Source: Campylobacterota bacterium
Lineage (GTDB): Bacteria > Campylobacterota > Campylobacteria > Campylobacterales > Sulfurovaceae
NCBI GenBank assembly: GCA_011048515.1
Contig: DSDW01000134.1
Span: 9,496-73,495 of the forward strand
Length of the DNA stretch: 64,000 nt
Reading direction: 5' to 3'
This document shows, in pieces, positions 6,856-55,577 of this stretch (position 1 is the first letter of the stretch; every line of letters begins with the position of its first letter). The position numbers were made by a program, and so were the translations under genes. The notes below the pieces were generated by a model that was not told the DNA's origin, searched no databases, and saw only the letters and a list, made by a program, of their open reading frames with translations.

Positions 6856-8133
6856 CTACAAAGCCTTTACCAGCCTGATAAAGGTCTCTCCCCTGTCTTT
6901 GTAGGACTTGAACTGGTCGAAACTTGCCGCGGCAGGAGAGAGCAGCGCAATGGAATCCAGGGTATGTTCCCGGTCGATCGCGGCTACTGCCTTATCGATC
7001 GTTTTTGCCTCATGGGCTTCGATCCCATAGGTTCTTGCCAGATCCAGAAGCCTGTCATTGTTTGCTCCGATCGTATAGATCCTGATATCGCATCCCTGCA
7101 TGACCTCAAAGAGCGGAGCAAGGTCCACTCCTTTATCTTCTCCTCCGAGGATCAGATGTATTTTTTGGCCCTCAAACCCTTTGATCGCCTGGACCGCGGC
7201 ATCCAGGTTGGTTGCCTTGGAGTCGTTGATCCATACTCTTCCCTGAGCATCTTCTATTTTCTCCTGTCTGTGTCCATCGAGTTTGAAAGCGTTGATGCGG
7301 TCATAGTCGGCTTCATCAAAGAGCACTCTGGTGATCGCCAGTGCGAGCAGGGCATCCTGCAAAAAAGCACCCTTGAATGCAACCTGCCCGGCATCAAGAT
7401 AAAAGTACTCCTCTAAAAATGCGTTCTCGTCATACTCCACCACATAGGCAGGAGTGGGGGGTATATTCAGCCCTTTGGGGATCAGTGCAAGTTCGCCTTC
7501 CCGCATTGTTCTGAGCGGTGCGAGCTTGTCTGCCTCATACTGTTCAGGCGTGCCGTGCCAGTCAAGATGATCCGGTGTGATGGGGAGCAGTAGGTAGATG
7601 TTCGGGGAGGCGATCCTGGTATGATGCAGGGTAAAAGAGCTGGTTTCTAGCACCCAGATCGGCGCCTCTGGATCAAGCTCTGCCAGCGGCGTACCGATAT
7701 TGCCGCCGGATACCGCGCCGCGCTTCTCAAGCAGGTGTGTCAGCATCTGCGTAGTGGTGGTTTTGCCGTTGGTGCCGGAGATCCAGACAGTGAAAGGCTT
7801 TTGCCTTTCAAGTGAAGCGTTTCGGTTGACATTGCCTTGCAACGCTTCTATAAATTTGCTCTGTGCTCCTTGCTCCCTGCTCCCTAATATATAGTCATAT
7901 TCACTCATCAGGTTTTGAGCACTTTTGATAAGCGGGTGACCGGGCTTGAGACTGGGGGTGGTGACCTCCAGGGTGCTTGCTTCCGGGTCAAAAAGATGTG
8001 AAGGGAGGATCTGGTTGCCCGCTTCATCCACAGAGACTTCTTTGACATTGTCGTCAAAAAAAGTACAGCCTCCGCCAAGGCTTTTTGCGATCGCCCTGGT
8101 GGTCAGTCCGTATCCGAAAAGTGTAGGTTTCAT
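6856..8133 (-). CDS. murD: UDP-N-acetylmuramoyl-L-alanine--D-glutamate ligase, with an in-frame insertion of about 25 aa
   Basis: ISGTNGKTTTT, GGNIG, LETSSF, DHLDWH, NDSKATN, LSPAAASFDQF. Confidence 0.95.
   Translation of the reverse strand: MKPTLFGYGLTTRAIAKSLGGGCTFFDDNVKEVSVDEAGNQILPSHLFDPEASTLEVTTPSLKPGHPLIKSAQNLMSEYDYILGSREQGAQSKFIEALQGNVNRNASLERQKPFTVWISGTNGKTTTTQMLTHLLEKRGAVSGGNIGTPLAELDPEAPIWVLETSSFTLHHTRIASPNIYLLLPITPDHLDWHGTPEQYEADKLAPLRTMREGELALIPKGLNIPPTPAYVVEYDENAFLEEYFYLDAGQVAFKGAFLQDALLALAITRVLFDEADYDRINAFKLDGHRQEKIEDAQGRVWINDSKATNLDAAVQAIKGFEGQKIHLILGGEDKGVDLAPLFEVMQGCDIRIYTIGANNDRLLDLARTYGIEAHEAKTIDKAVAAIDREHTLDSIALLSPAAASFDQFKSYKDRGETFIRLVKAL
7791..7887 (-). repeat. heptamer array plus hairpins in frame within murD
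   Basis: Minus strand AGGGAGC AGGGAGC AAGGAGC ACAGAGC, then stems GAAGCGTT/AACGCTTC and TGAAAGGC/GCCTTTCA. Confidence 0.65.
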
Positions 8134-8353
8134 AAAAAACTCCGTTTTTTAAATGAGGAGTGAGGAGTGCGCCCGAACGAAGTGACAAGTGCTCTTGGGG
8201 TAAGGAGTGAGGAGTGTCGGCATGTTTTGTGTGACAAAACGTTTAGTCTGTTTTTCTTCATGGTTTTCTTTATTCCATCCAAATGTATAAATGTATCGTA
8301 GAGGCTTTTTGCGAAAAAAGCTTACCATAACTCTTCACTCTTAATTCTTCACT
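8131..8353. mobile_element. empty heptamer-array element between mraY and murD
   Basis: Inverted arrays (TGAGGAG)n at 8153-8216 and ACTCTTC-type at 8330-8353. The reverse complement of 8330-8353 is identical to 45020-45043. Confidence 0.7.
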
Positions 8354-8373
8354 GTGAAGCATCGCTTCGGCTG

Positions 8374-9432
8374 CTATCTGAACTTAAAAGAGATAAGTGC
8401 CAGAATATTGGCGATAAGGGAGATCATCCAGAAGCGTACGATGATCTTGTTCTCTGCCCATTTCTTCATCTCGAAGTGATGGTGTATCGGTGCCATCAGA
8501 AAGACTTTTTTCCCGCGCAGTTTGAAGCTTCCCACCTGCAGGATCACCGAAACCGTCTCTATCACAAAGATCAGCCCGATCAGGATAAGGAGTATTTCGC
8601 TTTTGCCGAGGATCGCCAGGTAGGCGAGAAAACCGCCGATCGCCAAACTTCCCGTATCTCCCATAAAGATCTCGGCTGGGTAACAGTTGTACCAGAGAAA
8701 TCCCAAAAGCCCCCCTGCAAGAGCGGAGGCCATGATCGTCACTTCTCCCACCCCTTTGATATTGGGGACAAGCAGGTAGCCTGAGAAAATGGCATGGCCG
8801 GTGACATAGATGATCGTTCCCAGTGTCACCAGTGCAATGACAGAAGGTACGGTTGCAAGTCCGTCAAGCCCGTCGGTAAGGTTCACCGCATTGGTGGTAG
8901 CCAAAAATACCAATATCCAGAAGATAGCGGCAAAATAGCCCATATCAAAGAGTTCGTTTTTGAAAAAAGGGATATAGAATGTTGTCGGAAAATCGGCATA
9001 GAAAAGAATGCCTATCGCAGAGAGTGCCACGATGACCTGTCCTGCCATCTTCCCTTTTGCCGAAAGTCCTTCAAGGTTGTTCCCTGAGAGTATCTTCCCG
9101 ATATCGTCCTTAAACCCTACGAGGCCGAAACCGATCAGCGTGACAAGTCCGGCCAGGACAAACAGATTGCCCAGATCGGCACTTAAAAGTACGGCAATGA
9201 CCGTAGCGGAGAGGAACACTGCACCGCCCATGGTTGGTGTATGACGTTTTCCTTCATGCGCGGGAACATACTTGTTGATGGGCTGGTTGGCTTTTTTTGA
9301 GATCGCCCATGCCAGGTATTTTGGCATGATCACGAGTGTCAAAATGAATGCGATAAAGAATGCAAAACCTGACCGGACGGTAATGTATCCGAAAAGGTTC
9401 ATATCTAAAAGGTGCGAGAGTTCGTATAGCAT
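8374..9432 (-). CDS. mraY: phospho-N-acetylmuramoyl-pentapeptide transferase
   Basis: [36 protein letters not shown]. Confidence 0.97.
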
Positions 9433-12306: not shown

Positions 12307-12436
12307 GACCCGTTAAGCAAATGACACCTGCGTGTCATTTGTAGGGTCGAAACCGAAGCGGTGGAGCAAAGCGACCCGCGGAGGCAGAAGGACCCGTTAA
12401 GCAAATGACACCTGCGTGTCATTTACAGGGTCGAAA
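12307..12436. repeat. two 46-nt palindromic direct repeats (REP-like) at a convergent gene junction
   Basis: 12307-12352 and 12391-12436 differ at 2 positions; internal stem CAAATGACAC/GTGTCATTTG; 38-nt spacer. Confidence 0.85.
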
Positions 12437-15521: not shown

Positions 15522-15576
15522 AATGATGGAGGCATAGATTACTTTTGTTATAATGCGCTTCAAAAAAAGAGGTTAT

Positions 15577-16302
15577 GTGTCTAAAAATCGGTATTTACTC
15601 TCCTTTCTGGTAACAAGTTTTTTATATGCAACGATGGGATATTTGCTTTTTTATCTTTCAGAGACGACCAGCATTTCGGAACAGAAATCCCCCGTAAAAA
15701 CGATCGCCATGAGCGTTTATGCATTCCAGCCGGAAGTCGTGGAAGAAAAACCTGAACCGCCAAAAGAAGAGCCGACACCGGAACCGGAACCAGAGCCGAC
15801 ACCAGAACCTGAACCGGAGCCGGAGCTTCTACCCGTAGAGTCTCCAAAACCTGCACCTCTTGTAAAAAAAGAGGAGATCAAAAAACCGGAAGTCAAAAAG
15901 GTAAAAGAGGAGAAACCAAAAGAGAAACCTAAGAAGGCAGCGAAAAAGCATCCTGTGAAACTTCAGCCTACAGAGAAAATAAGTGCACGCAAAAGTACCC
16001 AGAAACAGCAGAGCACGGCAGCGGAGAAAAATCTTTTTCTTGCCAAGGTACGAGACCGTATCAACCAGCACAAGAGCTATCCGCGTATGGCAAAACGCCG
16101 CGGGATGGAAGGGAGTGTCAAGGTCGATTTTACGATCCTGGCAAACGGCAATGTCTCCGGCATTATGGTAAGCGGCCCCAAAGCGTTTCATGCTTCAGCC
16201 AAAGAGGCTGTAGAGAAGGCTTTCCCTGTCTCCGTCAAAAATATACCGATCACACTGCCGCAAAAAGTTTCCATTACACTCCACTATACCCTCAGTAGAT
16301 AG
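15577..16302 (+). CDS. tonB: energy transducer TonB
   Basis: N-terminal TM, Pro/Glu repeats (EPTPEPEPEP), C-terminal YPRMAKRRGMEGSVKVDF. Confidence 0.9.
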   Translation: MSKNRYLLSFLVTSFLYATMGYLLFYLSETTSISEQKSPVKTIAMSVYAFQPEVVEEKPEPPKEEPTPEPEPEPTPEPEPEPELLPVESPKPAPLVKKEEIKKPEVKKVKEEKPKEKPKKAAKKHPVKLQPTEKISARKSTQKQQSTAAEKNLFLAKVRDRINQHKSYPRMAKRRGMEGSVKVDFTILANGNVSGIMVSGPKAFHASAKEAVEKAFPVSVKNIPITLPQKVSITLHYTLSR

Positions 16303-34769: not shown

Positions 34770-34804
34770 TTTTTTCTCCTGTAAATCTCTTTTTACTTAA
34801 GTAT

Positions 34805-34832: not shown

Positions 34833-34839
34833 CTTTCGC

Positions 34840-36927: not shown

Positions 36928-37196
36928 AAAAACTCCGTTTTTAAATTAAAAATTAAAAGGTAAAAACTAACAATCCAGACTCGTTCCCACTCTCCTGAGT
37001 GGGAATGCATATACAACATTTCAGAGTAAAGGGAGTCTATTCACTTTTATGTCGTTTTGTACGCATTCCATATCAGGAGATATGGAACGAGGCGGTGGCT
37101 CCACTTTTTATGATTTGAAAGGATTATAGCAAAATAAAAGCACTTTGACAAAAGTGGATACTAAAGTTTTTAATTTTTAATTTTTACTTGTTAATT
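36925..37196. mobile_element. empty heptamer-array element containing an inverted REP doublet
   Basis: ATTAAAA ATTAAAA GGTAAAA at 36945-36965; inverse array at 37165-37196; REP hairpins at 36980-37008 and 37063-37091. Confidence 0.65.
36980..37091. repeat. REP doublet (REPIN-like)
   Basis: CTCGTTCCCACTCTCCTGAGTGGGAATGC and an inverted copy CTCGTTCCATATCTCCTGATATGGAATGC with compensatory stem changes. Confidence 0.8.
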
Positions 37197-37207
37197 GATC
37201 AAAAAGC

Positions 37208-39181: not shown

Positions 39182-39202
39182 ATTCTCCCTTTCAAATTTA
39201 TA

Positions 39203-39721: not shown

Positions 39722-39940
39722 ATGTCAGCCTTACAAAGACTACAAGCGAAGATCGAGCAGTGGAGAGTGGATTTTGAAGCGCTCAAAAGCGAAAATGCAC
39801 AGTTGAAGGTCGAACTGCAAAATGCGAGCGGTTCCAAAGAGGAGCAGTCTGCAGAGATCGAACTGTTGAAGCTTGAACTGGAAGAGAAAGATGCGGAGAT
39901 CGAGAAGATCATTGCGCAGGTCGAATCTTTACTTGCGTAA
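39722..39940 (+). CDS. ZapB-like coiled-coil cell division protein
   Basis: 72 aa pure coiled coil upstream of a ZapA-like gene. Confidence 0.6.
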   Translation: MSALQRLQAKIEQWRVDFEALKSENAQLKVELQNASGSKEEQSAEIELLKLELEEKDAEIEKIIAQVESLLA

Positions 39941-39951
39941 AGACTCTCTTT

Positions 39952-40078
39952 AATTAACAATGAATAAGTAATAATTAATAATGAAAGTATGTGTTGCACG
40001 CAACACTTTCATTAAGTAAAAGCACTTCAACGAAGTGCATACAAAACTTATTAATTATTCACTATTAATTATTTATTC
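39952..40078. mobile_element. empty AT-rich heptamer-array element
   Basis: AATTAAC AATGAAT AAGTAAT AATTAAT AATGAAA at left, inverse array 40046-40078, two internal hairpins (GTGTTGC/GCAACAC; GCACTTC/GAAGTGC). Confidence 0.6.
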
Positions 40079-40099
40079 AAAATAATCCAAAGGATTTTC

Positions 40100-40321
40100 A
40101 TGAAGCAGGTTGGGCTTACAATCTCCGGCAATCGCTACAACATCAATCTTGACGACGATTTCGCTGATTTTGTCTATCGGGATCTGAAGGAAGCCGGAGT
40201 CGAACTCTTTAAAGACAACAAACCCGATGCCCTGCTGAGGGCCTACCTCCGCCTGGCAAAACAGGCGACCTCCTATGAAAATGAGATCGAAATGCTGATC
40301 GAGACGCTTGAGGGGCTATAA
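40100..40321 (+). CDS. ZapA-like cell division protein
   Basis: VGLTISGNRYNINL N-terminal beta motif plus C-terminal coiled coil. Confidence 0.55.
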   Translation: MKQVGLTISGNRYNINLDDDFADFVYRDLKEAGVELFKDNKPDALLRAYLRLAKQATSYENEIEMLIETLEGL

Positions 40322-41750: not shown

Positions 41751-41945
41751 CTTGAACGATACCTCTCATTGCTATGTGTTCATTGATCTCTCTTGTATAC
41801 TTATACTATAAATATTTCAAATTATATACAAATATTTTAAATTAAGCAAACCGAGGAGGATGTTTTATAAATTTGAAAGCTTCGGCATATTATAATTTGA
41901 CAGGCCGGTTATTGAATCGGTACTATTTTTTATCAGGAGTTAATC

Positions 41946-42467
41946 ATGACACAGACGAACATGAGACGCGGATTTACGATGATCGAATTGATCTTTGTTA
42001 TTGTAATTATCGGTATTTTGGCAGCGGTTGCTATTCCTAAACTGGCAGCAACAAGAGATGATGCAAAGATCTCTAACATTGTTTCAAATACAAGAACAGC
42101 ATTAGGGGATATGAAAGCATTCTATACATCACAAGGTAATACAGTATGGAAAGATGCTGCTACTTTGATTGATACAATTACAGATGTACCATTTGAAACA
42201 GCTTGTGGTACGACAGCGATTGGAACAAAAGCAACATCTGCAGCAGGTAAGGATTTTGTGCTTTGTGATGAATCATCAGCTACTGGTGCAATTTGTATTA
42301 CAATGACGCTTACTGATGATGGGAATGTAACAGTTGAAGCAACAACTGCAGCTACACCAATATGTAAAGGCGTATTAAGTGATCCGGCGATCCAAGGGAT
42401 TGTAGGTGGTACTACTGCAACTTCTAGCAAAGTACATCAACTTGGCGGTATAGGCGTAGAAAGATAA
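41946..42467 (+). CDS. type IV pilin (probable major pilin)
   Basis: RRG|FTMIELIFVIVIIGILAAVAIPK; strong AGGAG RBS; downstream hairpin; AT-rich codons. Confidence 0.9.
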   Translation: MTQTNMRRGFTMIELIFVIVIIGILAAVAIPKLAATRDDAKISNIVSNTRTALGDMKAFYTSQGNTVWKDAATLIDTITDVPFETACGTTAIGTKATSAAGKDFVLCDESSATGAICITMTLTDDGNVTVEATTAATPICKGVLSDPAIQGIVGGTTATSSKVHQLGGIGVER

Positions 42468-43139: not shown

Positions 43140-45010
43140 TTTTTGATAAAAAAGCTTTTGTGTACTATTATCACGTTGCATTATTAAAAACGCATAGCCC
43201 TGTTTTTACATACGCTTCGACTACCAGGTATGAGATCGGAGCGGTTGTTTCTGTCCCGGTCAAATCTCTGGATAAAGAGGGTGTGGTAGTTCGTGTATCA
43301 GAGAAACCGGAGTTTGAAACCCTTGAGATCAAATCCTCTTTGGGTCAATACTACTCTGGAATACAGCTGGAAACGGCGAAGTTCATCTCCGACTACTACT
43401 TCTCCTCTCTGGGCGAGGCACTCTCCCTTTTTATCCCGTACCGTCGTCATTCCGGGCTTGACCCGGAATCCACATTGCAGGATGAGGAAGTTGCATTACC
43501 TCAGTTAACAGAAGCGCAGCAAAATGCCTATAACGCGCTGCTGCACAAAGAGAGAGCACTCCTCTTCGGGGTCACGGGCGCGGGGAAAACGGAGATATTC
43601 ATCAGCTTAATGGCGAAGATGCTTGAGGAGGGGAAAAGCACGGTCTTTCTGATGCCGGAGATCTCGCTCACGCCCCAGATGGAGACGCGTCTGAAAAAGT
43701 ACTTCGGCGAGCGTGTGGCGATGTGGCACTCCAAGCTGACGAAGAAGAAAAAAGAGAGCATCCTGGAGGGGATCCACAGCGGCGGGATACGCATCGTGGC
43801 GGGCGCGCGCTCGGCGCTCTTTGTCCCGCTGCAGGACCTCGGGCTGATCATCGTGGACGAAGAGCATGACGACAGCTACAAGGCGATGACACGGCCGCGC
43901 TACCATGCCAGGGATGTCGCGGTGCTGATGGGGCAGAAGCTCGGGGCAAAAGTGCTCCTGGCCTCTGCGACGCCGAGCATGGGTTCTTATACAAAATATG
44001 ATGTGGTCAAGCTGGACAGACCTTTCATTCAGACAGCGAAACGCTACACCTTTATCCCCGGCGATACGGTCAACACGACGATCCTGAAGGCGTTGAAAGA
44101 GAACTATCTCAAGGGCGGGCAGTCCCTGCTTTTTCTGCCGACACGCGGCAACTTCAAATACCTCTACTGTGAAAAGTGCGGCAAGACGCACCTCTGCCCT
44201 TTCTGTTCTGTCGGCATGGCGCTGCACCGCAACCACAGGCACCTGAAGTGCCACTACTGCAACTACACCGAAGCGATCCGTGACAGCTGCAGCTACTGCG
44301 GGCATACGCCGCTGAGAAGCGAACGCATGGGTACGCAGGAGGCGGTAGAGGTGATAGGCGCGGCGATCGAGGGGATCAAAGTAGAGAAGTTCGACAGGGA
44401 CAGCATCACCACGGCAAACAAGCTCAAGCAGGCATTGCAGCGTTTCGAGAAGAAGGAGAGCGACCTGTTGCTGGGCACGCAGATGCTCTCCAAGGGGCAT
44501 GACTACGCCGATATCACACTCTCCGTGATCATGGGGCTGGACCATATCCTTGGGCTGGCGGACTACCGCGCCAGAGAGCGGGCGATGAGCCTTTTCTTCC
44601 AGATCGCGGGGCGCAGCGGACGCGCCAAAGCAGCCGAGGTGGTCGTGCAGACAGGGGACCAGGAGTTTTTCAAAAGCTGCCTGGGGGACTACGAGTCCTT
44701 CATAAAAGAGGAGCTCTCCTTTCTGGAGATGATGGGGTATCCGCCTTTTGCCTCGCTGGCACGGATACTGATCGCCCACAAAGATGAAAGCAAGGCAGCC
44801 AAGATCACACTCGATACCGTCGCCAGGCTCAAATCCTTCGAAGCGGTAGAGATCGTAGGGCACGGCAAAGCACCGGTAGAAAAGATCGCCAACAAGTACC
44901 GCTTCCACATCCTGCTGAGGGCAAAAAGCAGGGTGCCGCTGCTCAAAGCGCTCCATGCGGTGGACTGCCGGGAGATAGAGATCGATATGGACCCGGTCGA
45001 ATTTTCTTAG
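43136..45010 (+). CDS. priA: primosomal protein N' (helicase)
   Basis: GVTGAGKTE, MPEISLTPQ, VDEEHD, SATPS, 8-Cys zinc cluster, QMLSKGHD, QIAGRSGR. Confidence 0.97.
   Translation: MIFDKKAFVYYYHVALLKTHSPVFTYASTTRYEIGAVVSVPVKSLDKEGVVVRVSEKPEFETLEIKSSLGQYYSGIQLETAKFISDYYFSSLGEALSLFIPYRRHSGLDPESTLQDEEVALPQLTEAQQNAYNALLHKERALLFGVTGAGKTEIFISLMAKMLEEGKSTVFLMPEISLTPQMETRLKKYFGERVAMWHSKLTKKKKESILEGIHSGGIRIVAGARSALFVPLQDLGLIIVDEEHDDSYKAMTRPRYHARDVAVLMGQKLGAKVLLASATPSMGSYTKYDVVKLDRPFIQTAKRYTFIPGDTVNTTILKALKENYLKGGQSLLFLPTRGNFKYLYCEKCGKTHLCPFCSVGMALHRNHRHLKCHYCNYTEAIRDSCSYCGHTPLRSERMGTQEAVEVIGAAIEGIKVEKFDRDSITTANKLKQALQRFEKKESDLLLGTQMLSKGHDYADITLSVIMGLDHILGLADYRARERAMSLFFQIAGRSGRAKAAEVVVQTGDQEFFKSCLGDYESFIKEELSFLEMMGYPPFASLARILIAHKDESKAAKITLDTVARLKSFEAVEIVGHGKAPVEKIANKYRFHILLRAKSRVPLLKALHAVDCREIEIDMDPVEFS
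43446..43473 (+). repeat. REP-like palindrome in frame within priA
   Basis: GTCATTCCGGGCTTGACCCGGAATCCAC; stem ATTCCGGG/CCCGGAAT; encodes RHSGLDPES. Confidence 0.7.
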
Positions 45011-45019
45011 AAAATTCGA

Positions 45020-45510
45020 AGTGAAGAATTAAGAGTGAAGAGTGAAGAGTTTTGGTATGCTTTTCTTTTGAAAAGCTTTTTTTAAATCAGGAAATAAATG
45101 AGTATATTGGAAGAGAAAAGCTATGCTTTTTCGATTCGTATCGTGAAGTGTACACAGTATTTGCAAGATGATAAGAAAGAGTTTGTTCTAAGTAAACAGC
45201 TCATTCGTTCGGGTACAGCTGTGGGTGCATTGATCGCTGAGGCGAAATATGCACAATCGAAATCGGATTTTATCAATAAACTCTCAATAGCCGCCAAAGA
45301 AGGAAATGAGACCAAATATTGGCTGCGTCTTTTAAAAGATTGTAACTATCTTCAAGAAAAAAGTGCTATAAGTCTATTGGATGATATAGAGGGTCTCATC
45401 CGGATATTGGCATCAAGTATAAAAACTGCAAAAGAGAATAACTATGAAAAATAAAACACAAACGAAGTTTGTTTTCCAGCACTCTTCACTCTTCACTCTT
45501 CACTCTTCAT
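45020..45510 (+). mobile_element. four-helix-bundle cassette bounded by inverted AGTGAAG heptamer arrays
   Basis: AGTGAAG AATTAAG AGTGAAG AGTGAAG AGT at 45020-45050; (ACTCTTC)x4 at 45481-45508; a hairpin just inside each array. Confidence 0.8.
45098..45454 (+). CDS. four helix bundle protein (TIGR02436; 23S rRNA IVP/Avd-like)
   Basis: QLIRSGTAVGALIAEA..AQS..DFINKL.IA.KE.NETKYWL.LL; 60/110 identical to the 39249-39611 protein by hand alignment. Confidence 0.9.
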   Translation: MSILEEKSYAFSIRIVKCTQYLQDDKKEFVLSKQLIRSGTAVGALIAEAKYAQSKSDFINKLSIAAKEGNETKYWLRLLKDCNYLQEKSAISLLDDIEGLIRILASSIKTAKENNYEK

Positions 45511-45532
45511 TTTTCCCTCAAGGAGGAAAACT

Positions 45533-46594
45533 GTGAAAGAGAGATTTCCTACAAAGAAGATCTATGTCGGCAATGTAGCCGTAGGAGGGGATGCCCCGAT
45601 CTCGGTGCAGTCGATGACCTACAGTGATACGCATAATGTGGAGGCAACGGTCGAGCAGATCAACAGGCTGCACTTTGCTGGTGCGGATATCGTACGTGTG
45701 GCTGTGCCGAAGATGGAGGATGCCCTGGCGCTTGAGGAGATCAAGAAGCGTATCTCTCTGCCGCTGATCGCGGATATCCACTTTGACTACAGACTGGCGC
45801 TTGAAGCAGCCAAGTGGGTGGACTGCATCCGGTTCAACCCCGGGAATATCGGTGAGAAGAACCGTATCAGGGAGATCGTCAAAGCGTGCCAGGAGAGAAG
45901 CCTTCCGATCCGTGTGGGGGTCAATGCGGGAAGTCTGGAAAAAGAGTTTGAGGACCGGTACGGAGCGACCGCCGAGGGAATGGTGGCAAGCGCGGAGTAC
46001 AATATTAAGTTCCTTGAAGACCTCGGCTTTACCGATATCAAAGTCTCCCTCAAGGCCAGCGATGTGGACCGTACCGTGGAAGCCTACCGGATGCTTCGCC
46101 CCAAAAATAACTACCCTTTCCATCTCGGGGTGACGGAGGCCGGTACGGTCTTTCATGCCACGATCAAGTCCGCGATCGGGCTGGGGGCACTGCTGCTTGA
46201 CGGGATAGGGGATACCCTGCGTGTCTCGATCACCGGTGAGCTGGAAGAGGAGATCAGGGTAGGCAAAGCGATCCTTAAAGACAGCGGACGCGTGCAGGAG
46301 GGGCTCAACATCATCTCCTGTCCGACCTGCGGGCGGATAGAGGCGGACCTGGTCTCGGCCGTGGCAGAGGTGGAGAGGCGCACCGCGCATATCAAAACAC
46401 CGATGGATGTCTCCGTAATGGGATGCGTGGTCAACGCCATTGGCGAAGCCAAGCATGCCGATGTGGCGATCGCCTACGGAAAAGGTTCCGGACTCATTAT
46501 GGTAAAGGGTGAGGTGGTGGCACGCCTTCCCGAGAATGAACTAGTCGATAGATTTGTTGCTGAAGTAGAGAATTTTGCAAAAGAGAATAGCTGA
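45533..46594 (+). CDS. ispG: 4-hydroxy-3-methylbut-2-en-1-yl diphosphate synthase (flavodoxin)
   Basis: [47 protein letters not shown]. Confidence 0.97.
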
Positions 46595-49056
46595 TGGAAA
46601 ACATGTACAACCTCAATATCGAACGTGCGGTCCTCTCTGCGATCATCTTCGACCCGGAGATCTACGAAGAGGTCGCTGCCAAGCTAAAGCCGCATGACTT
46701 TTATCTCCCCTTCCATCAGCACCTATTTGCTGCGATGGAAGAGCTTTCGCACGAAGAGAAGCCGATCGATGAAGAGTTTTTGCGCAGCAAACTGAAAAAC
46801 AAAGGGAAGTTCGACGAAGTTGCGATGCTCGACCTGCTCTCGGTCAACCCTATCTCAAATACCGGAGCCTATCTTGCGGAGATCAAGGCAAAGTCCAGTA
46901 AGCGCGCACTTGCGACACTGGCTACGGAGATCAGAAAACGAACGATCGAAGATGACCTGCCTGCCGATGAGGTGATGAACCTCGTAGAAAAGAAGCTCTA
47001 TGAGATCACACAGAACAGCAGTAACGAGGATTTCCGGGAATCCAATGAAATTACTCTCTCTATGCTCGAGGAGATCAACCGCCTCAAGGCGATGGGCAAC
47101 TCCAAGCTGATCGGTACGGATACGGGATTTAAAAACCTCAATGATAAAACCTCGGGATTCGGAAAAGGGGACCTCGTCATTGTCGCTGCGAGGCCGGCGA
47201 TGGGGAAATGTCTGGGCAAAGGCACAAAAGTGCTGATGTATGATGGTTCGTTGAAAAATGTGGAAGATGTTGTGGTGGGGGATAAACTGATGGGGGATGA
47301 CTCTACGCCTCGCAATGTACTTTCTCTGGCCCGTGGACGAGAAGAGATGTATTGGGTCAGACAAAACAAAGGGGTGGACTACCGCGTCAATAAATCACAT
47401 ATCCTCTCTTTGAAACGTTCGCGCAACGAAGGCAGACATAAACATGGGGATGTGCTAAATATCGAAGTTTCAGACTACATTGAAAAGAGTGACAAGTTCA
47501 AAACAAACTACAAAGGATACAAAGTCAGTGTAGAGTTCGATGCAAAACCTTTGGAGATCGAACCCTACTTTTTGGGCTTGTGGCTGGGGGATGGCAGAAG
47601 CTCTGATGTGCGTATCGCTACGGAAGATGATGAGGTGGTAGAGTATCTGCAGGAGTATGCTTTTAGATTGGATAAAAAACTTCATCGTTATGAGGTAGAT
47701 GGCAAATGTACCATGTTCGGTATCACTAATATACAAAAAGAGGGTGCTTTGCGTGATGTAAGCCATTCACTGCAAGGAAAGCTCCGAACACTGGGTGTGA
47801 TAGATAACAAACATATTCCTCATGACTATCTCACGGGGAGCAAAGAACAAAGAGAGGCATTGCTTGCGGGATTGATAGATAGTGACGGCTATTATGATGA
47901 TAGATATCATGTGATGGAGATCGTTCAAAAAAATCAAGCACTTGCCCAGCAGATAAAGTTTTTGGCAGACTCTCTTGGTTTTAGAGTCTCTTTGGTGAAG
48001 AAAAAAGCGACCATCAAGTCCATGGGCTATGAGAGTGATGTATTTCGGGTGCGTATCGTAGGGAATTTGGAAACGATACCTACACGGATAGAAAGAAAAA
48101 AAGCAAGAGCATTGGCATCCAAAAGAGACCATCGTCATACCGGGATCAAAGTAGAATTTGATAAAGTAGATGACTATTATGGTTTTGTGTTGGATGGCAA
48201 CCATCTTTTTTTGCTGGAAGATATGACAGTGACGCACAACACGGCTTTCGTCCTCAATATAGCACTCAAAGCGATCGAACGGGACGAAGGGGTGGCATTT
48301 TTCTCACTGGAGATGCCTGCGGAGCAGCTGATGCTCAGAATGCTCTCTGCCAAGACCTCCATTCCCCTGCAGTCGCTCAGAGTGGGTGATCTGACCGATG
48401 AACAGTGGTCACAGCTCTCGGCAGCGACCGATGATATCTCCAAAAAGAGGCTTTTTGTGGATGACGGGGGACATGCGACGATCCATCAGGTAAGAAGCAA
48501 ATTGCGCAAGCTCAAGTCCAGGCACCCTGAGATCTCGATAGCGATCATCGACTACCTGCAGCTGATGAGCGGCGACGGGAAGGAAGGAAGACAGCAGGAG
48601 GTTTCCGAGATCTCAAGGGGGCTGAAACAGCTTGCCAGAGAACTGCAGATCCCGATCGTGGCACTTTCCCAGCTCAACCGCGGACTGGAGGCAAGGGAAA
48701 ACAAACGGCCGATGCTCTCCGACCTCCGTGAATCCGGGGCGATAGAACAGGATGCGGATATCATTCTCTTTGTCTACCGTGATGATGTCTACCGGGAAGC
48801 CAAAGAGAAAGAGAAAGAGATGAAGGCGAAAGCCGAAGGCAAGGAGTACAGTTCGGAGTTCAAAAAGAAGTCCGAAGAGGAGGCGGAGATCATCATCGGG
48901 AAACAGAGGAACGGTCCGACGGGTACGGTGGATCTGCTCTTTCAGAAAAGATTTACACGCTTTGTGGATGCCTCACACTCTCCGGCCTTTGAAGTGGTCT
49001 ATGAAGAGGGGAATATCCCGATGAATGAAGGGAATATCGAACTACCGAGGATCTAG
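46594..49056 (+). CDS. dnaB: replicative DNA helicase with intein
   Basis: IERAVLSA, ARPAMGK|intein|TAF, FSLEM, IDYLQL, SQLNR, DLRESGAIEQDAD, KQRNGPTG. Confidence 0.97.
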   Translation: MENMYNLNIERAVLSAIIFDPEIYEEVAAKLKPHDFYLPFHQHLFAAMEELSHEEKPIDEEFLRSKLKNKGKFDEVAMLDLLSVNPISNTGAYLAEIKAKSSKRALATLATEIRKRTIEDDLPADEVMNLVEKKLYEITQNSSNEDFRESNEITLSMLEEINRLKAMGNSKLIGTDTGFKNLNDKTSGFGKGDLVIVAARPAMGKCLGKGTKVLMYDGSLKNVEDVVVGDKLMGDDSTPRNVLSLARGREEMYWVRQNKGVDYRVNKSHILSLKRSRNEGRHKHGDVLNIEVSDYIEKSDKFKTNYKGYKVSVEFDAKPLEIEPYFLGLWLGDGRSSDVRIATEDDEVVEYLQEYAFRLDKKLHRYEVDGKCTMFGITNIQKEGALRDVSHSLQGKLRTLGVIDNKHIPHDYLTGSKEQREALLAGLIDSDGYYDDRYHVMEIVQKNQALAQQIKFLADSLGFRVSLVKKKATIKSMGYESDVFRVRIVGNLETIPTRIERKKARALASKRDHRHTGIKVEFDKVDDYYGFVLDGNHLFLLEDMTVTHNTAFVLNIALKAIERDEGVAFFSLEMPAEQLMLRMLSAKTSIPLQSLRVGDLTDEQWSQLSAATDDISKKRLFVDDGGHATIHQVRSKLRKLKSRHPEISIAIIDYLQLMSGDGKEGRQQEVSEISRGLKQLARELQIPIVALSQLNRGLEARENKRPMLSDLRESGAIEQDADIILFVYRDDVYREAKEKEKEMKAKAEGKEYSSEFKKKSEEEAEIIIGKQRNGPTGTVDLLFQKRFTRFVDASHSPAFEVVYEEGNIPMNEGNIELPRI
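47209..48240 (+). mobile_element. intein with LAGLIDADG homing endonuclease (344 aa) in the DnaB Walker A motif
   Basis: Starts CLGKGT, block B VNKSH, endonuclease blocks FLGLWLGDG and LLAGLIDSDG, ends VTHN followed by +1 Thr. Confidence 0.95.
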
Positions 49057-50367: not shown

Positions 50368-51183
50368 TTAGATATGTTCGATCTCCTCCTCTTTGTTCAG
50401 CAGGTCACAGAACTTGAGCCCATGCAGGAAGATCATCCAGGAGACATAGATCCACAAAAAGAAGAAGAGGAGCGTGGAGACGGAGCCGTAGATGTTCATA
50501 TAGGTTTTGTTGTGGAGGATATAGTAGATAAAGCCGTTTTTGGAGAGGTTCCACACAAGCGAAGTGATAAAAGAGCTGATGAGTGCGGATGATACGGAGA
50601 CCCTGGTGTTTGCAGAGAACTGGAACAACAGGTAAAACACCATCCACACGATCAGAAAAGGGACAAAGTAGAGCAGCTGAATACTGCTGGTGATACTGAA
50701 GCGGTTCAAATAGAGCTGCATCGTTGCAGAGAGGTAAAAAGAAATCCCCATCATCAAAGGAATGACGAGAAGAAGGAGGCCGTAGGTTTTGAGTGCATTG
50801 AAGACCCCGCGGTTTGGCACACCGAAGATATCATTGACGATATAGTCATAGTTTTTGAAAAAGAGTATCGCTGCTACTGTGACATAGAGCACGCCGATAT
50901 ATCCGAGTTTGTAGGAGTTCTCCATAAAGGTATTGATGTAGTCTATTACCTCCTTTGAGTATGTGGGCAGGAGGTTGCGGAAGATCAGATCTTTGATCTG
51001 GACTTGTATCTCCTCAAAGGCAGGCAGAGTGGTAAAGACCCACAGTATAATGACCATCAATGGAATGATGGAGAAGAGCGTACTCCAGCTGAGGCTTGAA
51101 GCGTAGTGGCCGATCTTGTCATCAAAAAGCTCGCTGATGAAGTCCCGTAGGAAGATATAGTAGTGTCGCAAAAGGGATCTCAT
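50368..51183 (-). CDS. YihY/virulence factor BrkB family membrane protein
   Basis: ASSLSWSTLFSIIPL, YMNIYGSVSTLLFFFLWIY. Confidence 0.88.
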   Translation of the reverse strand: MRSLLRHYYIFLRDFISELFDDKIGHYASSLSWSTLFSIIPLMVIILWVFTTLPAFEEIQVQIKDLIFRNLLPTYSKEVIDYINTFMENSYKLGYIGVLYVTVAAILFFKNYDYIVNDIFGVPNRGVFNALKTYGLLLLVIPLMMGISFYLSATMQLYLNRFSITSSIQLLYFVPFLIVWMVFYLLFQFSANTRVSVSSALISSFITSLVWNLSKNGFIYYILHNKTYMNIYGSVSTLLFFFLWIYVSWMIFLHGLKFCDLLNKEEEIEHI

Positions 51184-51200
51184 CGGGGATCCCTTGTTTT

Positions 51201-51340
51201 AGTGAATAGTGAATAGTGAGGAGTGAAGAGTGTCGGTATGCACTGCTTTGTAGTGCCTTTAGTAAATAAAAGAGAAACAAAGCTCATTTTCAAAAACTCC
51301 TCTTCATTAATCGCTAATTTCTAACACTTCACTCCTCGCT
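51201..51340. mobile_element. empty heptamer-array element
   Basis: AGTGAAT AGTGAAT AGTGAGG AGTGAAG AGT-GTCGGTATGC plus hairpin; degenerate inverse end CACTTCACTCCTCGCT. Confidence 0.65.
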
Positions 51341-51364
51341 TTAAAAAGGCAAATGCCTTTTTAA
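51341..51364 (-). terminator. perfect hairpin overlapping the glcD-like stop codon
   Basis: TTAAAAAGGC-AAAT-GCCTTTTTAA. Confidence 0.6.
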
Positions 51365-52749
51365 TTTGGCAGTCCCATTTTCCCCGGATTGAGGATATTG
51401 TTGGGGTCAAATGCCTGTTTGAGGTCTCTGAAGAGTTGTATCTCCTCTTCGTTGAAGGCGATATTCATAAACGGTGCCTTGGCTGTTCCGATACCGTGTT
51501 CGCCGCTGAGCGTACCGCCCATCTCCACCACCAGTTCGAATATCTCTTCGATACAGTGGTGCCCCTCTTCAAGCTGCTTTGGATCGCTCCCGTCCACCAT
51601 GACGTTGACATGGATATTGCCATCCCCGGCATGTCCGAAGCAGGGTACTTTGAACCCATACTTCCTGCCGATCTCATAGATACGTTTCAGTGCTTCAGGC
51701 AGCATACTTCTTGGCACCGAGATATCCTCATTGAGCTTTTTGCTGCCGTATATGGTGATTACCGGGGAAGCGTTGCGTCTGGCAACCCAAAGCCGGTCTC
51801 TCTCTTCGGCAGTGTGCGCTACGATGAAATCCTGCGCGCCGTTCTCTTTGAAGGATTTTTCCAGGGTTGCAAGCTGGAACTCCACCTCCTCAGGGACATT
51901 CCCGTCCACATCGCCGATCAGCAGGCCGCCCGCATCTTCAGGCAGTTCGATACCGAGTTTCTCCTTCAGCGCCTGTACCACCAGGTCATCCATGAACTCC
52001 ATCGCTACGGGGTTTGCGCCTGAAGCAAGTGACTTGAAGACCGCGTTCATCGCATCTTCAACGGAAGGGAAGATGCCCATATAGGCTTTGGTATATTTGG
52101 GTTTTGGGATCAGTTTGAGCGTGATCTCCGTGATGACAGCCAAAGTTCCTTCGCTCGCGATCAGGATGCCAGCGATGTTATATCCCGCCACATCTTTGAT
52201 CGTACGTTTCCCCGCACGGATGATGTCTCCGTTCGGACGTACGGCTCTGAGTGCCATCACATAGTCTTTGGTAATCCCGTACTTGGCCGCACGCATACCT
52301 CCGGCATTTTCGCTGACATTTCCGCCAAGCGTCGAGTAGGCTTCGCTGGCAGGATCCGGCGGATAGAAAAGTCCTACCGCTTCTGCTGCTTTTTGCAGAT
52401 CCATATTGACCACGCCGGGCTGGACGACGGCAACCATGTTCTCCATATCGATCTCGAGGATCTTGTTCATATGTTTTTCCATCGCCAGGGTGATCCCGCC
52501 GTTTGTCGGAAGCGCTCCCCCGGTAAAGCCCGAGCCCGCGCCGCGCGGAGTGATCACAATCTTGTGCTCATTGCAATAGGACAGGATGTGGCTGACATCC
52601 TCCTCATTGCGGGGAAATACTACCGCATCGGGTTCGAAACGTGTACGCGTCGCATCGTACGAGTAAGCGATAAGATGGGCTTTGTCAGAGTAGACATTTT
52701 CCTTGCCTACCATCTCTTCGAAAGCTTTGATATGTTTTGCGTCTAGCAT
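51361..52749 (-). CDS. glcD: FAD-linked oxidase, GlcD-like (glycolate/D-lactate dehydrogenase subunit)
   Basis: PRGAGSGFTGG, PPDPAS, GGNVSENAGG, GHAGDGNIH, GEHGIG, NILNPGK. Confidence 0.85.
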   Translation of the reverse strand: MLDAKHIKAFEEMVGKENVYSDKAHLIAYSYDATRTRFEPDAVVFPRNEEDVSHILSYCNEHKIVITPRGAGSGFTGGALPTNGGITLAMEKHMNKILEIDMENMVAVVQPGVVNMDLQKAAEAVGLFYPPDPASEAYSTLGGNVSENAGGMRAAKYGITKDYVMALRAVRPNGDIIRAGKRTIKDVAGYNIAGILIASEGTLAVITEITLKLIPKPKYTKAYMGIFPSVEDAMNAVFKSLASGANPVAMEFMDDLVVQALKEKLGIELPEDAGGLLIGDVDGNVPEEVEFQLATLEKSFKENGAQDFIVAHTAEERDRLWVARRNASPVITIYGSKKLNEDISVPRSMLPEALKRIYEIGRKYGFKVPCFGHAGDGNIHVNVMVDGSDPKQLEEGHHCIEEIFELVVEMGGTLSGEHGIGTAKAPFMNIAFNEEEIQLFRDLKQAFDPNNILNPGKMGLPN

Positions 52750-53697: not shown

Positions 53698-54918
53698 ATG
53701 CCAATGTTTAAAAGTGTTGTGGTGATACTTTTGGCGCTTACCTCTCTTTTCGGTGCGAAAGTGACGCTCCATGACTGGGAAAGAGGGCAGACATTTTCAA
53801 ATTTTCTTGAAGAGCATAATATTCCAAAGAAGTTGCTGGGCCAAATCTCCGATGAGGATCAAAAGTTTCTCACAGAGATACAGAGTGATTCTAAGTATTA
53901 TCAGCTGGTCGGAGCCGATAATACCCTGATACAGGCATTGATCCCTATCAATGAGGAGATGCAGATCCATCTTTACAGGGACAGAGAGAGCGGCGAGTAC
54001 AGTTTTGACATCATTCCCATCGTCTATGAAGAGAATGAGTATTTTGCCAATGTTGAGATAAACTCCAATCCTTACAGCGACACTTTGGAGTGTGTCAAAG
54101 AAGAAAAGATCGCCAAAAGAGTGGGGCAGGCGCTCAAGAATACGATCAATACAAAATCGTTGGCCAAGGGTGATCAGGTTGCCTTTTGTTATAAGCAGCG
54201 TACCCGGCTGGGGGAGATCTGTCATATGCCGAGTATTGAAGTGATCAAGCTTACTACGCGCGGCAAGACGAAGTTCATCTATGCGGATGAAGACGGGGAT
54301 GGCCATCTTGAAGGGGCGCAGCGTACCAGCTTCAGCAAAGAAGGTGATCTTGTCCATCTGGTACCTTTCAGAGACCGATCCAAGAAACTCGGTATGCCCC
54401 TCAGGCATATACGTATTACCTCGTCGTTCAGCTACAGAAGATGGCACCCTATCCTGAAGCGTTATCGTCCCCACCACGGAACAGATTTCGGCGCAAGGAC
54501 AGGGACGCCGCTTTTGGCTGTCTATGAAGGGACGGTAAGTTATGCCGGCTGGATGGGAGGATACGGAAAGGTGGTGAAGATCAGGCACCCCAGAGGCTAT
54601 GAATCCCTCTATGCACATCAAAATCGCATCAGCGTGCGCAGGGGGGAGCGGGTCAAAAAAGGGCAGATCATCGGATATGTGGGCAGTACGGGCAGAAGCA
54701 CAGGACCGCATCTTCATTTCGGGCTTCAAAAAAGCGGAAGATGGGTCGACCCTATGAAGCATCTTCAGCGTACTTCCCTGAACAAGCAGAAGTTTAACAA
54801 GATCGTGATCAAAGATGCCAAAATGCATAAAGAGAAGCTTGTCAGGCTGCTCGATGCAAACAGCAGCACTTATGTCTGGGATGACACCAGCACGCAGAGC
54901 ACAAGGATAGGTGGATAG
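53698..54918 (+). CDS. M23 family peptidase (Csd3-like)
   Basis: RWHPILKRYRPHHGTDFGA, LYAHQ, GRSTGPHLHFG. Confidence 0.92.
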   Translation: MPMFKSVVVILLALTSLFGAKVTLHDWERGQTFSNFLEEHNIPKKLLGQISDEDQKFLTEIQSDSKYYQLVGADNTLIQALIPINEEMQIHLYRDRESGEYSFDIIPIVYEENEYFANVEINSNPYSDTLECVKEEKIAKRVGQALKNTINTKSLAKGDQVAFCYKQRTRLGEICHMPSIEVIKLTTRGKTKFIYADEDGDGHLEGAQRTSFSKEGDLVHLVPFRDRSKKLGMPLRHIRITSSFSYRRWHPILKRYRPHHGTDFGARTGTPLLAVYEGTVSYAGWMGGYGKVVKIRHPRGYESLYAHQNRISVRRGERVKKGQIIGYVGSTGRSTGPHLHFGLQKSGRWVDPMKHLQRTSLNKQKFNKIVIKDAKMHKEKLVRLLDANSSTYVWDDTSTQSTRIGG

Positions 54919-54922
54919 AGGC

Positions 54923-55501
54923 ATGAAAAACGAGATCAAGTCTTTTCAGCTTCATCCACTTGAAGATCCGAAGTTCATCACCGCCTCTCTTGCTACCTAT
55001 CAGCAAAACGGTGTTGCAAAGAGCTGGGAGATCGTAGAGGCGCACGACAGCGTTGCGATCCTGATCTACCACACAACAAAAGATGCGTTTGTGCTGGTAC
55101 GGCAGTTCAGGCCGGCGGTCTATATCAACAATCTTGACGGACTCACGATCGAGCTCTGTGCAGGTATCGTGGATAAAAATCTTTCGTTGCTGCATATCGC
55201 ATCGGAGGAGATAGAAGAGGAGTGCGGTTACCGTATAGACGTGAACCAGCTGGAAAAGATCACCTCTTTTTACACTTCAGTGGGCTTTGCAGGCAGCAAG
55301 CAGATGCTCTACTATACAGAGGTGGACGAAAGCATAAAAGTCTCCGAAGGCGGAGGCGTGGATGATGAACAGATCGAAGTGGTCTATCTGCCGGTTTCAG
55401 AAGCCAACGCTTTTATCTATGATGAAAAAGTGGCAAAAACACCGGGGTTGATTTTTGCCTTTATGTGGTGGTTTGGGAATAAATTGGAAATTAGAAATTA
55501 A
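54923..55501 (+). CDS. NUDIX hydrolase (nucleoside diphosphate-sugar pyrophosphatase, NudF/NudK-like)
   Basis: LVRQFRPAV, ELCAGIVD...EEIEEECG Nudix box. Confidence 0.88.
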   Translation: MKNEIKSFQLHPLEDPKFITASLATYQQNGVAKSWEIVEAHDSVAILIYHTTKDAFVLVRQFRPAVYINNLDGLTIELCAGIVDKNLSLLHIASEEIEEECGYRIDVNQLEKITSFYTSVGFAGSKQMLYYTEVDESIKVSEGGGVDDEQIEVVYLPVSEANAFIYDEKVAKTPGLIFAFMWWFGNKLEIRN

Positions 55502-55577
55502 AAATTTTGGGCATTTCTTCAGGTTAAAGAGTAAAGAAGTGGGAATAAAAAATACTCCTAACTCCCCTAACTCTACT
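55482..55577. repeat. degenerate heptamer-array element at a convergent junction
   Basis: AATTGGA AATTAGA AATTAAA AAT (contains the Nudix stop) and ACTCCTA ACTCCCC TAACTCT ACT (contains the globin stop). Confidence 0.45.

Follow-up and report, generated by a model that had tools for sequence, protein, structure and literature searches.

The elements described here have their closest described counterparts in two kinds of sequence. One is the intervening sequence (IVS) of rRNA genes; that of Coxiella burnetii is a 428-nt element with an S23p open reading frame (ORF) and two to three tandem heptamers at its 5′ end, is cut by RNase III at the first repeat, and varies in repeat copy number between strains (PMC4990558). 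The other is the tandem heptamer array, known as TAACTGA repeats in Beggiatoaceae, cyanobacteria and Bacteroidetes, for which a binding protein was proposed and stop codons in all three frames were noted (PMC4679880), and as GGGAATC arrays in Xanthomonas (70 convergent pairs among 186 sites), with GGGGAYT in Nostoc (PMC4692102). The present study concerns a 64,000-nt stretch of contig DSDW01000134.1 (positions 9,496 to 73,495, forward strand; hereafter the window), which belongs to the chromosome of a Sulfurovaceae bacterium (Campylobacterota) and has a GC content of about 47%. Inverted arrays of tandem heptamers recur in it at a series of loci, and two of the array pairs enclose a gene for a four-helix-bundle (4HB) protein of the TIGR02436/PF05635 family. 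Arrays and 4HB gene are combined in the same way in three bacterial phyla at least, as well as in viral contigs, and every set sampled showed the association. The association is not peculiar to the window genome, and the original prediction, which was made from the letters of the window alone, understated the finding. We assign a probability of about 0.6 to the reading that the window loci derive from an operon-riding selfish cassette of the S23p rRNA-IVS kind, some as copies with the gene and others without it, and are located in protein-coding transcription units.

Heptamers designated STRR were reportedly described in cyanobacteria by Mazel in 1990. The window arrays resemble the STRR, TAACTGA and GGGAATC arrays in being tandem 7-nt repeats in intergenic DNA, near gene starts or ends, often just before starts, and variable in copy number; the positions of the known arrays are conserved between relatives, and their heptamer sequences differ but resemble the consensus A-R-T-K-R-A-N (ARTKRAN) obtained here, which is similar to TAACTGA and AACTAAT. 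The papers on TAACTGA (PMC4679880) and on GGGAATC/GGGGAYT (PMC4692102) do not connect the arrays with 4HB genes, and our literature search found no paper tying heptamer arrays to such genes, except the description of the Coxiella IVS. In Pfam-based surveys, genes for IVS proteins (IVP) were reported in cas operons and in rRNA insertions of the Candidate Phyla Radiation (CPR), the domain being called uncharacterised.

In common with the rRNA IVS of Coxiella burnetii and Leptospira (PMC4990558), the window elements have a PF05635/TIGR02436 gene, a length of about 430–510 nt, inverted ends around the ORF that are predicted to pair into a stem, and an apparent location inside a host transcript in host orientation; the Coxiella heptamers likewise stand beside the ORF, and the IVS is regarded as selfish. 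Unlike the rRNA IVS, they lie between protein-coding genes and not in rRNA helices 25 or 45 (no rRNA was found in the window with Rfam), carry arrays on both sides as the main stem, have gene-less derivatives, and possess, in Sulfurovaceae, a linker, a terminator-like hairpin and an outward Shine-Dalgarno (SD) sequence. They may be regarded as a variant of the IVS-like selfish elements, and their cross-phylum association appears, as far as we could determine, to be undescribed.

Association of heptamer arrays with 4HB genes

For the comparison beyond the window, a contig scan with an alignment of 4HB proteins provided 80 metagenomic loci from many environments (50–62% protein identity, GC 0.29–0.59), and 23 further loci were taken from viral contigs. 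Sixty-six of the 80 metagenomic loci were array-positive: 101 period-7 arrays were located not more than 200 bp from the ORF, a density of 3.14 per kb, and the other 223 kb contained 36 (0.16 per kb), which is a contrast of about 20-fold, and the other periods (4–6 and 8–12) were represented near the ORFs by zero to one array each. Arrays are thus enriched near 4HB genes across these metagenomic loci. The upstream array matched the reverse complement of the downstream array far above shuffles in 53 of the 75 loci with enough flank, and the heptamer sequence differed from locus to locus while both arms of a locus matched. The 127 arrays of this set had a median length of 31 nt (interquartile range 26–33), 87 of them containing four or five units, and their heptamers gave the consensus A (96%), A/G (76/22%), T (80%), T/G (71/28%), G/A (50/33%), A (80%), N.

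These numbers bear directly on the view that heptamer simple sequence repeats (SSR) arise repeatedly and independently by slippage in AT-rich intergenic DNA, their proximity to 4HB genes being coincidental. Heptamers are indeed reported as over-represented SSRs in many bacteria (cited in PMC4692102), and copy number is strain-variable, as in Coxiella and in two Bacteroides strains (L170 and L171) that differ by 21 nt, i.e., by three units. Nevertheless, such an origin is scarcely credible given a 20-fold density beside 4HB ORFs with no other period enriched, a consensus extending across phyla, a length distribution peaked at four to five units instead of a geometric one, the frequent inverted pairing, and a linker and hairpin conserved between genera. 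The description of the window loci as a dispersed family related by descent was upheld by the shared consensus, by the linker and hairpin, and by 24 identical bases in the ends of loci A and G (Table 1).

The strand of the 4HB gene was that of the upstream neighbour in 60 of 60 loci and that of the downstream neighbour in 62 of 68, with median gaps of 31 nt upstream and 35 nt downstream, so that the arrays constitute essentially the whole intergenic spacers. The neighbours of every cassette inspected were housekeeping genes, and a motif search detected conserved 23S motifs in none of the fetched 4HB loci. The interiors between a purine-rich array (R-array) and its pyrimidine-rich partner (Y-array) were either 8–201 or 346–592 nt long, with one exception of 1451 nt; this bimodality implies that the cargo is a 4HB gene or almost nothing, and it agrees with the proposed existence of empty and solo forms beside those with a 4HB gene.

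Among the viral contigs, 19 of 23 loci were array-positive, including those with proteins only 28–38% identical and with GC-rich heptamers such as GATTGCG. The gene of Bacteroides BT_0352 (PDB 2RLD) is located between araD-like and araA genes and is flanked by (AATTGAC)5 and (AATTGTC)4; arrays of the same heptamer, (AATTGAC)n and (AATTGTC)n, surround a Bacteroidaceae copy between an aminotransferase and a DAHP synthase gene and an Anaerolineae (Chloroflexi) copy inserted in a type I restriction system, with hsdS and hsdR as its neighbours. A TTTTGAA-type array, of the heptamer known from Nostoc, flanks the 4HB gene in contig L186. In another contig (L156, 1-158 and 641-807) the GAATGGA/GAATTGA arrays around the 4HB gene reach at least 22 units, far above the usual four to five.

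The 4HB protein

The two 4HB ORFs of the window comprise 118 and 120 codons, match TIGR02436 with E values of about 1e-29 (scores of 102.2 and 100.8 bits, cutoff 24), and share 54% identity, so that the reported enclosure of two TIGR02436 genes with about 55% mutual identity was accurate. PF05635 was assigned to all homologues in precomputed annotation, and the family contains 17,177 clusters at 50% identity (E ≤ 1e-3). The 4HB gene is under purifying selection: the ORF of the window's priA–ispG cassette differed from two copies at the ispG|dnaB site by seven (CP087124) and nine synonymous codons and by no non-synonymous one.

The AlphaFold (AF2) model of the protein had a pLDDT of 94.5 with helices at residues 2-24, 30-49, 55-81 and 87-113. 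Its best Foldseek matches were 2RLD (BT_0352; TM 0.9) and then Xcc0516 (2GSC; TM 0.75), followed by Avd of diversity-generating retroelements (DGR; 4DWL, 8UBE), including the entries of Avd complexes with reverse transcriptase (RT) and RNA, 8UBE and 8UB7. Xcc0516 and Avd were both reached by the fold search but not by a profile search of PDB sequences. The kinship to 23S rRNA IVS proteins and to Avd stated in the original prediction therefore holds by sequence and fold, the direct similarity to the Avd model NF033474 being marginal (20 bits against a cutoff of 80). Five chains are present in each of the crystal entries 2RLD and 2GSC, and Xcc0516 was described as a homopentameric ring (PMC4990558); by analogy, the window proteins would form pentamers as well. 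The aligned 4HB members have a median predicted pI of 9.1.

The likeness to Avd, which shares the four-helix-bundle fold and the pentameric assembly (4DWL, 8UBE) and is a basic protein working within a ribonucleoprotein, raises the question of retromobility, i.e., of whether the 4HB protein cooperates with an RT encoded elsewhere, a looped or excised RNA being copied into transcribed regions. The Avd–RT–RNA entries, the weak NF033474 match and the strict co-orientation with host transcription, as expected from an RNA intermediate, would all fit. In contrast to DGR, however, no RT, template repeat or variable repeat was found near the loci inspected; RT was absent among the annotated window ORFs (about 20 were annotated) and beside every cassette examined, there is no poly-A, and a need for expression by read-through accounts for co-orientation equally well. 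We consider this route very improbable.

Polymorphism and movement of the cassette

A UvrB synteny scan of genome contigs provided four close relatives; window UvrB is 86% identical to that of Sulfurovum sp. 16-42-52 (L001), 85% to that of a Sulfurovaceae metagenome-assembled genome (MAG; L002) and 81% to that of a “Nitratifractor” MAG (L003). The region of the priA–ispG cassette (locus G) is 100% identical in a metagenome contig and in MAG GCA_016933735.1, and 87–89% identical in the complete genome CP087124.1 (L083).

A second cassette was found between ispG and dnaB in CP087124 and in a JGI contig, at the place where, in the window, the ispG stop and the dnaB start overlap in TGATG. The unit 45015-45521 of the window (about 508 bp) recurs in CP087124 at 96.5% identity (98.0% for the ORF), against 86.8% for ispG and 87–89% for the flanks. 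This ispG|dnaB copy is nearer to the window copy than is the own priA–ispG copy of CP087124 (93.4%), which suggests that it was imported from a window-like lineage and did not arise by simple local duplication. Among contigs of related strains, some of them assembled from RNA runs and read for DNA-level differences, the priA|ispG junction also occurs empty, ispG|dnaB also occurs with a short insert (about 187 nt) that carries G-type arrays, and a G-type element is found lacking its 4HB gene. In related strains the alleles of loci C, D and F have interiors reduced to about 20 nt with the array sequence kept: 18–19 nt replace the interior of locus D, 20 nt that of locus C, and shorter alleles occur at locus F. 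L001 and L003 carry the cassette beside uvrB (locus E), with different heptamers, and L002 has none there; L001 lacks locus D, and the position of locus F is occupied in L003. Filled, short and empty alleles among relatives, the polymorphism expected of a mobile element, were thus observed at priA|ispG, ispG|dnaB, uvrB and locus D.

A further case lies outside this lineage. In an unrelated organism (L151) a 460-nt cassette occupies positions 2449-2908, and cultured strains with flanks about 99% identical have in its place a 34-nt solo array, AAAAGCAAATAACTAATCACTAACAACTAATCAC, of another heptamer type, which provides the stop codon of the upstream gene and extends almost to the start of the downstream one. 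The comparison of alleles demonstrates that the cassette has moved. The cultured strains with AAAAGCAAATAACTAATCACTAACAACTAATCAC also hold gene-less pairs of the heptamer proper to the L151 cassette.

Polymorphic insertion would also be expected of a DNA transposon or a miniature inverted-repeat transposable element (MITE), with the arrays as terminal inverted repeats (TIR) of a transposase encoded elsewhere and the 4HB gene as a passenger. Inverted termini, short gene-less derivatives and a dispersed end module agree with this; the left end module of locus G (45019-45080, about 60 nt) is shared by many contigs and is followed in them by unrelated sequence. Yet of the features of MITEs, only the dispersed copies and the insertion polymorphism were seen, and a conserved TIR shared by all copies was not: the termini vary between copies of one genome while the arms match within a copy, unlike TIRs recognised by a transposase. 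Moreover, the one datable insertion has no target-site duplication, the same “passenger” recurs across phyla and viral contigs with almost no other cargo (the single 1451-nt exception), orientation is tied to host transcription (60/60), and no transposase was found among the roughly 20 annotated ORFs. We regard a transposon origin as improbable.

Correia elements of Neisseria, REP/BIME and ERIC are short dispersed palindromic intergenic elements that are co-transcribed and fold into stems. The Correia elements are cut by RNase III, and elements of the Correia/REP/ERIC type can carry promoters or terminators. They differ from the window elements in having fixed-sequence TIRs, a target-site duplication (TA in Correia) and no dedicated protein cargo, whereas the window elements end in copy-variable heptamer arrays with one gene family travelling along. 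Free-standing phage homing endonuclease genes are likewise small selfish genes, situated between conserved co-directional genes and patchy among relatives. Homing endonuclease genes also occur in rRNA insertions (PMC11270868). Unlike them, the 4HB cassettes have flanking repeat arrays. To our knowledge, no nuclease motif or activity has been found in 4HB proteins.

Two further observations concern these sites. DnaB, encoded in the window at 46594-49056 (+), carries an intein in which Pfam recognises a homing endonuclease of the LAGLIDADG type (Hom_end_hint, Hom_end, LAGLIDADG_3); a selfish element of a second kind thus adjoins the site of the ispG|dnaB cassette insertion. Downstream of uvrB in L002 (12000-12300), where there is no 4HB cassette, another dispersed repeat, CCGTCATTCCGGACTTGATCCGGAATCCAC, is present in several copies together with small hairpins.

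Loci of the window

The two full cassettes and the remaining loci are listed in Table 1. Tandem Repeats Finder (TRF) detected period-7 arrays at nine of the ten places named in the original prediction. In our own scan, strong tandem runs numbered five for period 7, one for period 6 and none for periods 4, 5 and 8–12, and shuffles gave none. The array pairs of loci G, E, F and D are the four longest inverted repeats of the window, in agreement with the claim of inverted ends, and the first array is always purine-rich when read 5′ to 3′ on either strand. With the ARTKRAN consensus built from the independent metagenomic loci, the window being left out, (ARTKRAN)×3 with up to two mismatches matched the window 29 times against 1.04 expected (maximum of 5 in 100 shuffles); 27 of the 29 matches fell inside loci A and D–I, those at left ends lying on the + strand and those at right ends on the - strand. 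Outside the arrays and short flanks the loci share no similarity, with the exception of the 24 identical bases in the A and G ends.

Table 1 Heptamer-array loci of the window (R purine-rich, Y pyrimidine-rich array; RBS ribosome-binding site)
Feature	Coordinates	Strand	Position	TRF period-7 arrays	Parts
A, gene-less	8134-8373	-	between mraY and murD	8154-8169; 8330-8353	on the - strand: R-array 8353-8327 (AGTGAAGAATTAAGAGTGAAGAGT, 24 nt identical to G left end), linker TATGGTAAGC, hairpin GCTTTTT-TCGC-AAAAAGC, interior; CTCCTCA-type arrays 8154-8169 and 8205-8220 on +; RBS module 8147-8135 before murD ATG
B, gene-less	33322-33608		between convergent exonuclease (32550-33347, +) and CysZ-like (33592-34245, -) genes, both ending inside arrays	33322-33355; 33574-33608	R-array 33322-33355 (AGCAGGG/AGTAAGT), linker TTAGGTAAGC, hairpin 33363-33380 with T-run, several internal hairpins, Y-array 33574-33608 (CTTTTTA ×5)
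C, weak solo purine-rich array	34771-34861	-	between ppk stop and next gene start	negative	
D, gene-less	36928-37207	-	between uvrB and ppk	36943-36974; 37167-37196	arrays 36943-36974 and 37167-37196, end hairpin with T-run, long internal hairpin 36980-37091, RBS module 36940-36928 before ppk ATG
E, full cassette	39186-39722	-	between small ORF 39722-39940 (+) and uvrB (-)	39194-39232; 39673-39703	arrays 39194-39232 and 39673-39703 (AAGTAAA/AATTAAA type), 4HB ORF 39249-39611 (-), TATAAT-like box upstream of ORF, outward RBS module AAACGGAGTTTTT 39707-39719 (+)
F, gene-less	39942-40087	+	between small co-directional ORFs 39722-39940 and 40100-40321	39951-39982; 40048-40077	R-array 39951-39982, hairpins 39991-40006 and 40022-40038 (linker TTTTGTATGC on - strand), Y-array 40048-40077
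G, full cassette	45015-45528	+	between priA and ispG	45020-45050; 45480-45509	TTCG and R-array 45020-45050 (AGTGAAG/AATTAAG), linker TTGGTATGC 45052-45060, terminator-like hairpin 45059-45076 with T-run, 4HB ORF 45098-45454, hairpin about 45463-45478, Y-array 45480-45509, then TTTTTCCCTCAAGGAGG
H, gene-less	51200-51338		between - strand FAD oxidase (51361-52749) and BrkB-like (50368-51183) genes	51200-51232	R-array 51200-51232 (TAGTGAA/AGTGAGG), linker TCGGTATGC 51233-51241, hairpin 51239-51255, complementary CACTTCACTCCTC array about 51319-51336
I, short pair	55481-55577		between convergent NUDIX (54911-55501, +) and globin (55573-56058, -) genes, both ending in arrays	55481-55506	AAATTAG-type array 55481-55506, CTCCTAA-type array about 55555-55577
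Period-7 run in murD	7856-7885	-	in frame in murD, peptide ...GSREQGAQS...	7856-7885	no partner, linker, hairpin or consensus match

About ten loci of one architecture had been proposed; eight of these are solid, that at 34805-34832 (locus C) is weak, and the run at 7858-7885 in murD is probably outside the family. The heptamer of the murD run, AGGGAGC, is a rotation of AGCAGGG of locus B, which could be due to chance or to an old in-frame array. Likewise, the notion of a conserved period with variable sequence was right as to the period, but a degenerate consensus exists. As for the surrounding genes, the assignments of murD, mraY, uvrB, priA and ispG were confirmed, and the small ORFs taken for “zapB” and “zapA” gave no Pfam match; the other flanking genes encode a DnaQ-like exonuclease, a CysZ-like protein, Ppk, DnaB, an FAD oxidase, a BrkB-like protein, a NUDIX protein and a globin. 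Several genes terminate within arrays, namely both convergent genes at locus B, both at locus I, and ispG of CP087124, which ends at a TGA inside the array.

Most ends of these elements have a common layout, consisting from outside to inside of a purine-rich array, a linker T-N-G-G-T-A-W-G-C (variants TATGGTAAGC, TTTTGTATGC and TTTAGTATCC) and a hairpin of 6–9 bp, usually followed by a T-run; some of the end hairpins satisfy simple terminator criteria. The shared linker that had been noticed is only modestly over-represented (8 occurrences in the window against 2.4 expected), and only three of them are at elements, with near-variants at other ends. The linker and hairpin are conserved across genera, since L003 carries the same ones. 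An identical module, TTTAAAAAACGGAGTTTTT, follows the Y-array at three loci and is in turn followed by the ATG of a host gene (murD, ppk and the small ORF after locus E); its core AAACGGAGTTTTT is found exactly three times in the window against 0.11 expected. At the right end of locus G, TCAAGGAGG precedes the start of ispG (GTG at 45533), with TTTTTCCCTCAAGGAGG as the source of the SD sequence, and the same end precedes dnaB in the second copy of CP087124. From this placement before host starts, the ends of the Sulfurovaceae subfamily appear to bring an outward SD sequence for the downstream gene.

Outside the purine-rich arrays, at 44998-45018 and 37197-37225, the last codons of priA and uvrB are followed by their own inverted copy, giving hairpins of 9–11 bp with the stop codon in the loop. 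The end of ispG in CP087124 (L083, about 1405-1421) forms a similar one, GCGTTTG-CCT-CAAACGC, and the empty ispG site of the window holds a palindrome, TTTTGCAAAA. These gene-end hairpins could be a target preference or an insertion footprint.

The gene-less loci contained no 4HB remnants by tblastn (E up to 10) and no known RNA family or tRNA as cargo according to Rfam and a tRNA scan of the window. The best sigma70-like promoter of the 33–46 kb region lies within locus D (37151 to 37123, TTGTCA-17-TATAAT with extended TG) and is directed toward ppk. The heptamer flavours of the gene-less loci mirror those of the two 4HB cassettes, A and H having the AGTGAAG type, and D, F, I and one arm of B the AAGTAAA/AATTAAA type. 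We infer that the gene-less pairs are decayed or non-autonomous relatives using the same sites.

At the same time, this matching of two heptamer flavours with two 4HB paralogues is what one would expect of a regulon, in which the arrays are cis-regulatory RNA or DNA sites near gene starts bound in trans by an autoregulated, immobile 4HB protein and spread by slippage and selection. The excess of gene-less loci (seven) over 4HB genes (two) in the window, solo arrays that closely precede start codons (locus C; the empty L151 allele), a length of four to five units suited to a pentamer, and the 169 TAACTGA sets that mostly end 1 nt before a start codon (MacGregor 2015; PMC4679880) can all be read in this way. 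A regulon does not account, however, for a unit of about 508 bp that stands with its arrays at a new site at 96.5% identity in flanks of 87–89%, for cassettes in unrelated operons across taxa (ara, aromatic amino acid, type I restriction-modification, cas, rRNA), or for clean filled and empty alleles in flanks about 99% identical, and as a full explanation we hold it to be unlikely. It is partly compatible with a selfish cassette, as the protein could both bind the arrays and ride along.

Proposed mode of existence of the cassette

In the selfish cassette that we favour, the core unit is a 4HB gene of about 117 codons between two inverted arrays of four to five A-R-T-K-R-A-N heptamers, which lies between co-directional host genes in host orientation and would be expressed by read-through. 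Co-transcription with the neighbours would follow from the same orientation and from the lack of room for a promoter in most loci elsewhere. In the transcript the arrays would pair into a stem of about 30 bp with the cassette looped out. In RNA folding the outer arms of loci B and D–H were predicted to pair, z ranging from -2.0 at E to -9.2 at B, where many G.U pairs take part. Such a stem would be a likely substrate of RNase III, as in the Coxiella IVS, and the loop-out would bring the upstream stop codon near the downstream start, so that insertion would be cheap for the host. Insertion even between coupled essential genes such as ispG and dnaB would be tolerated owing to the loop-out, the stop codons of the arrays and the outward SD sequence; the purine-rich arrays block all three frames in 74 of 127 cases. 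Additionally, the arrays would probably serve as binding sites of a 4HB pentamer, one heptamer per protomer, because the narrow range of four to five units and the conserved heptamer suggest a sequence-specific partner, for which the pentameric 4HB protein is the obvious candidate.

Several results weigh against this scheme. In the sense strand, G.U mismatches between the arms are no more frequent than A.C ones (41 vs 50), so RNA pairing is not singled out over DNA pairing or copying between the arms; the arms of locus I barely pair in RNA folding, and those of locus A pair only partly. Solo arrays are common, both among the present sequences (locus C; L003 12042-12075) and in published cases (Beggiatoaceae, Nostoc), which means that stem formation is not their sole role. 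Some Sulfurovaceae copies have their own -10 boxes, and read-through is therefore not obligatory. Stop codons as the selected cause of the period of 7 were rejected, since a stop is present in 97 of the 127 consensus heptamers and in 97.9 after shuffling with matched composition, so that the translational-stop role is a consequence and not a demonstrated selected feature. The binding of the arrays by the 4HB protein, probable as we consider it, is a step that we infer entirely, and the BT_0352-like proteins are acidic (pI 5.6). Finally, no catalytic protein for movement was identified, with neither a transposase nor an RT among the annotated window ORFs, and the ispG|dnaB insertion of CP087124, the single datable case, has no target-site duplication relative to the empty site of the window.

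A wider and more tentative proposition, to which we give somewhat less than even odds, is that the heptamer arrays (STRR, TAACTGA, GGGAATC, Nostoc TTTTGAA, Coxiella IVS) and the IVP/4HB family are the two halves of one ancient system, in which a pentameric Avd-like protein would recognise about five heptamers and a transposase-free mobile cassette would persist in operons, rRNA genes and phages, neutral by loop-out. With the 4HB protein and the heptamer repeats placed in one unit, the function of S23p, the over-representation of the repeats and the nature of the repeat-binding partner become testable together; two papers, one of them PMC4679880, call for such a partner. BT_0352 would be a tractable case, with its solved structure, its location in the ara operon and its (AATTGAC)n flanks. 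The loci also illustrate a way for a selfish gene to live in essential operons at little apparent cost. For annotation they call for caution, as stop codons, SD sites and terminators of housekeeping genes may come from such elements.

Other features of the window

The only Rfam match in the window, in which neither rRNA nor tRNA was found, is a c-di-GMP-I-GGC riboswitch at 57059-57134 (+), upstream of ORF 57193-57828, with a score of 60.2 bits against a gathering threshold of 59. Two copies of a 23-nt palindrome, AAATGACACCTGCGTGTCATTTG, stand 60 nt apart in intergenic DNA (12319-12341 and 12402-12424) and may be an operator or a bidirectional terminator. A 24-nt tandem repeat of 2.3 copies with a 6/12-nt sub-period (15768-15822), inside ORF 15553-16302, probably encodes a repetitive protein linker, and an AT-rich 20-nt tandem repeat of 2.1 copies is located in the intergenic region at 41801-41844, upstream of ORF 41946-42467.

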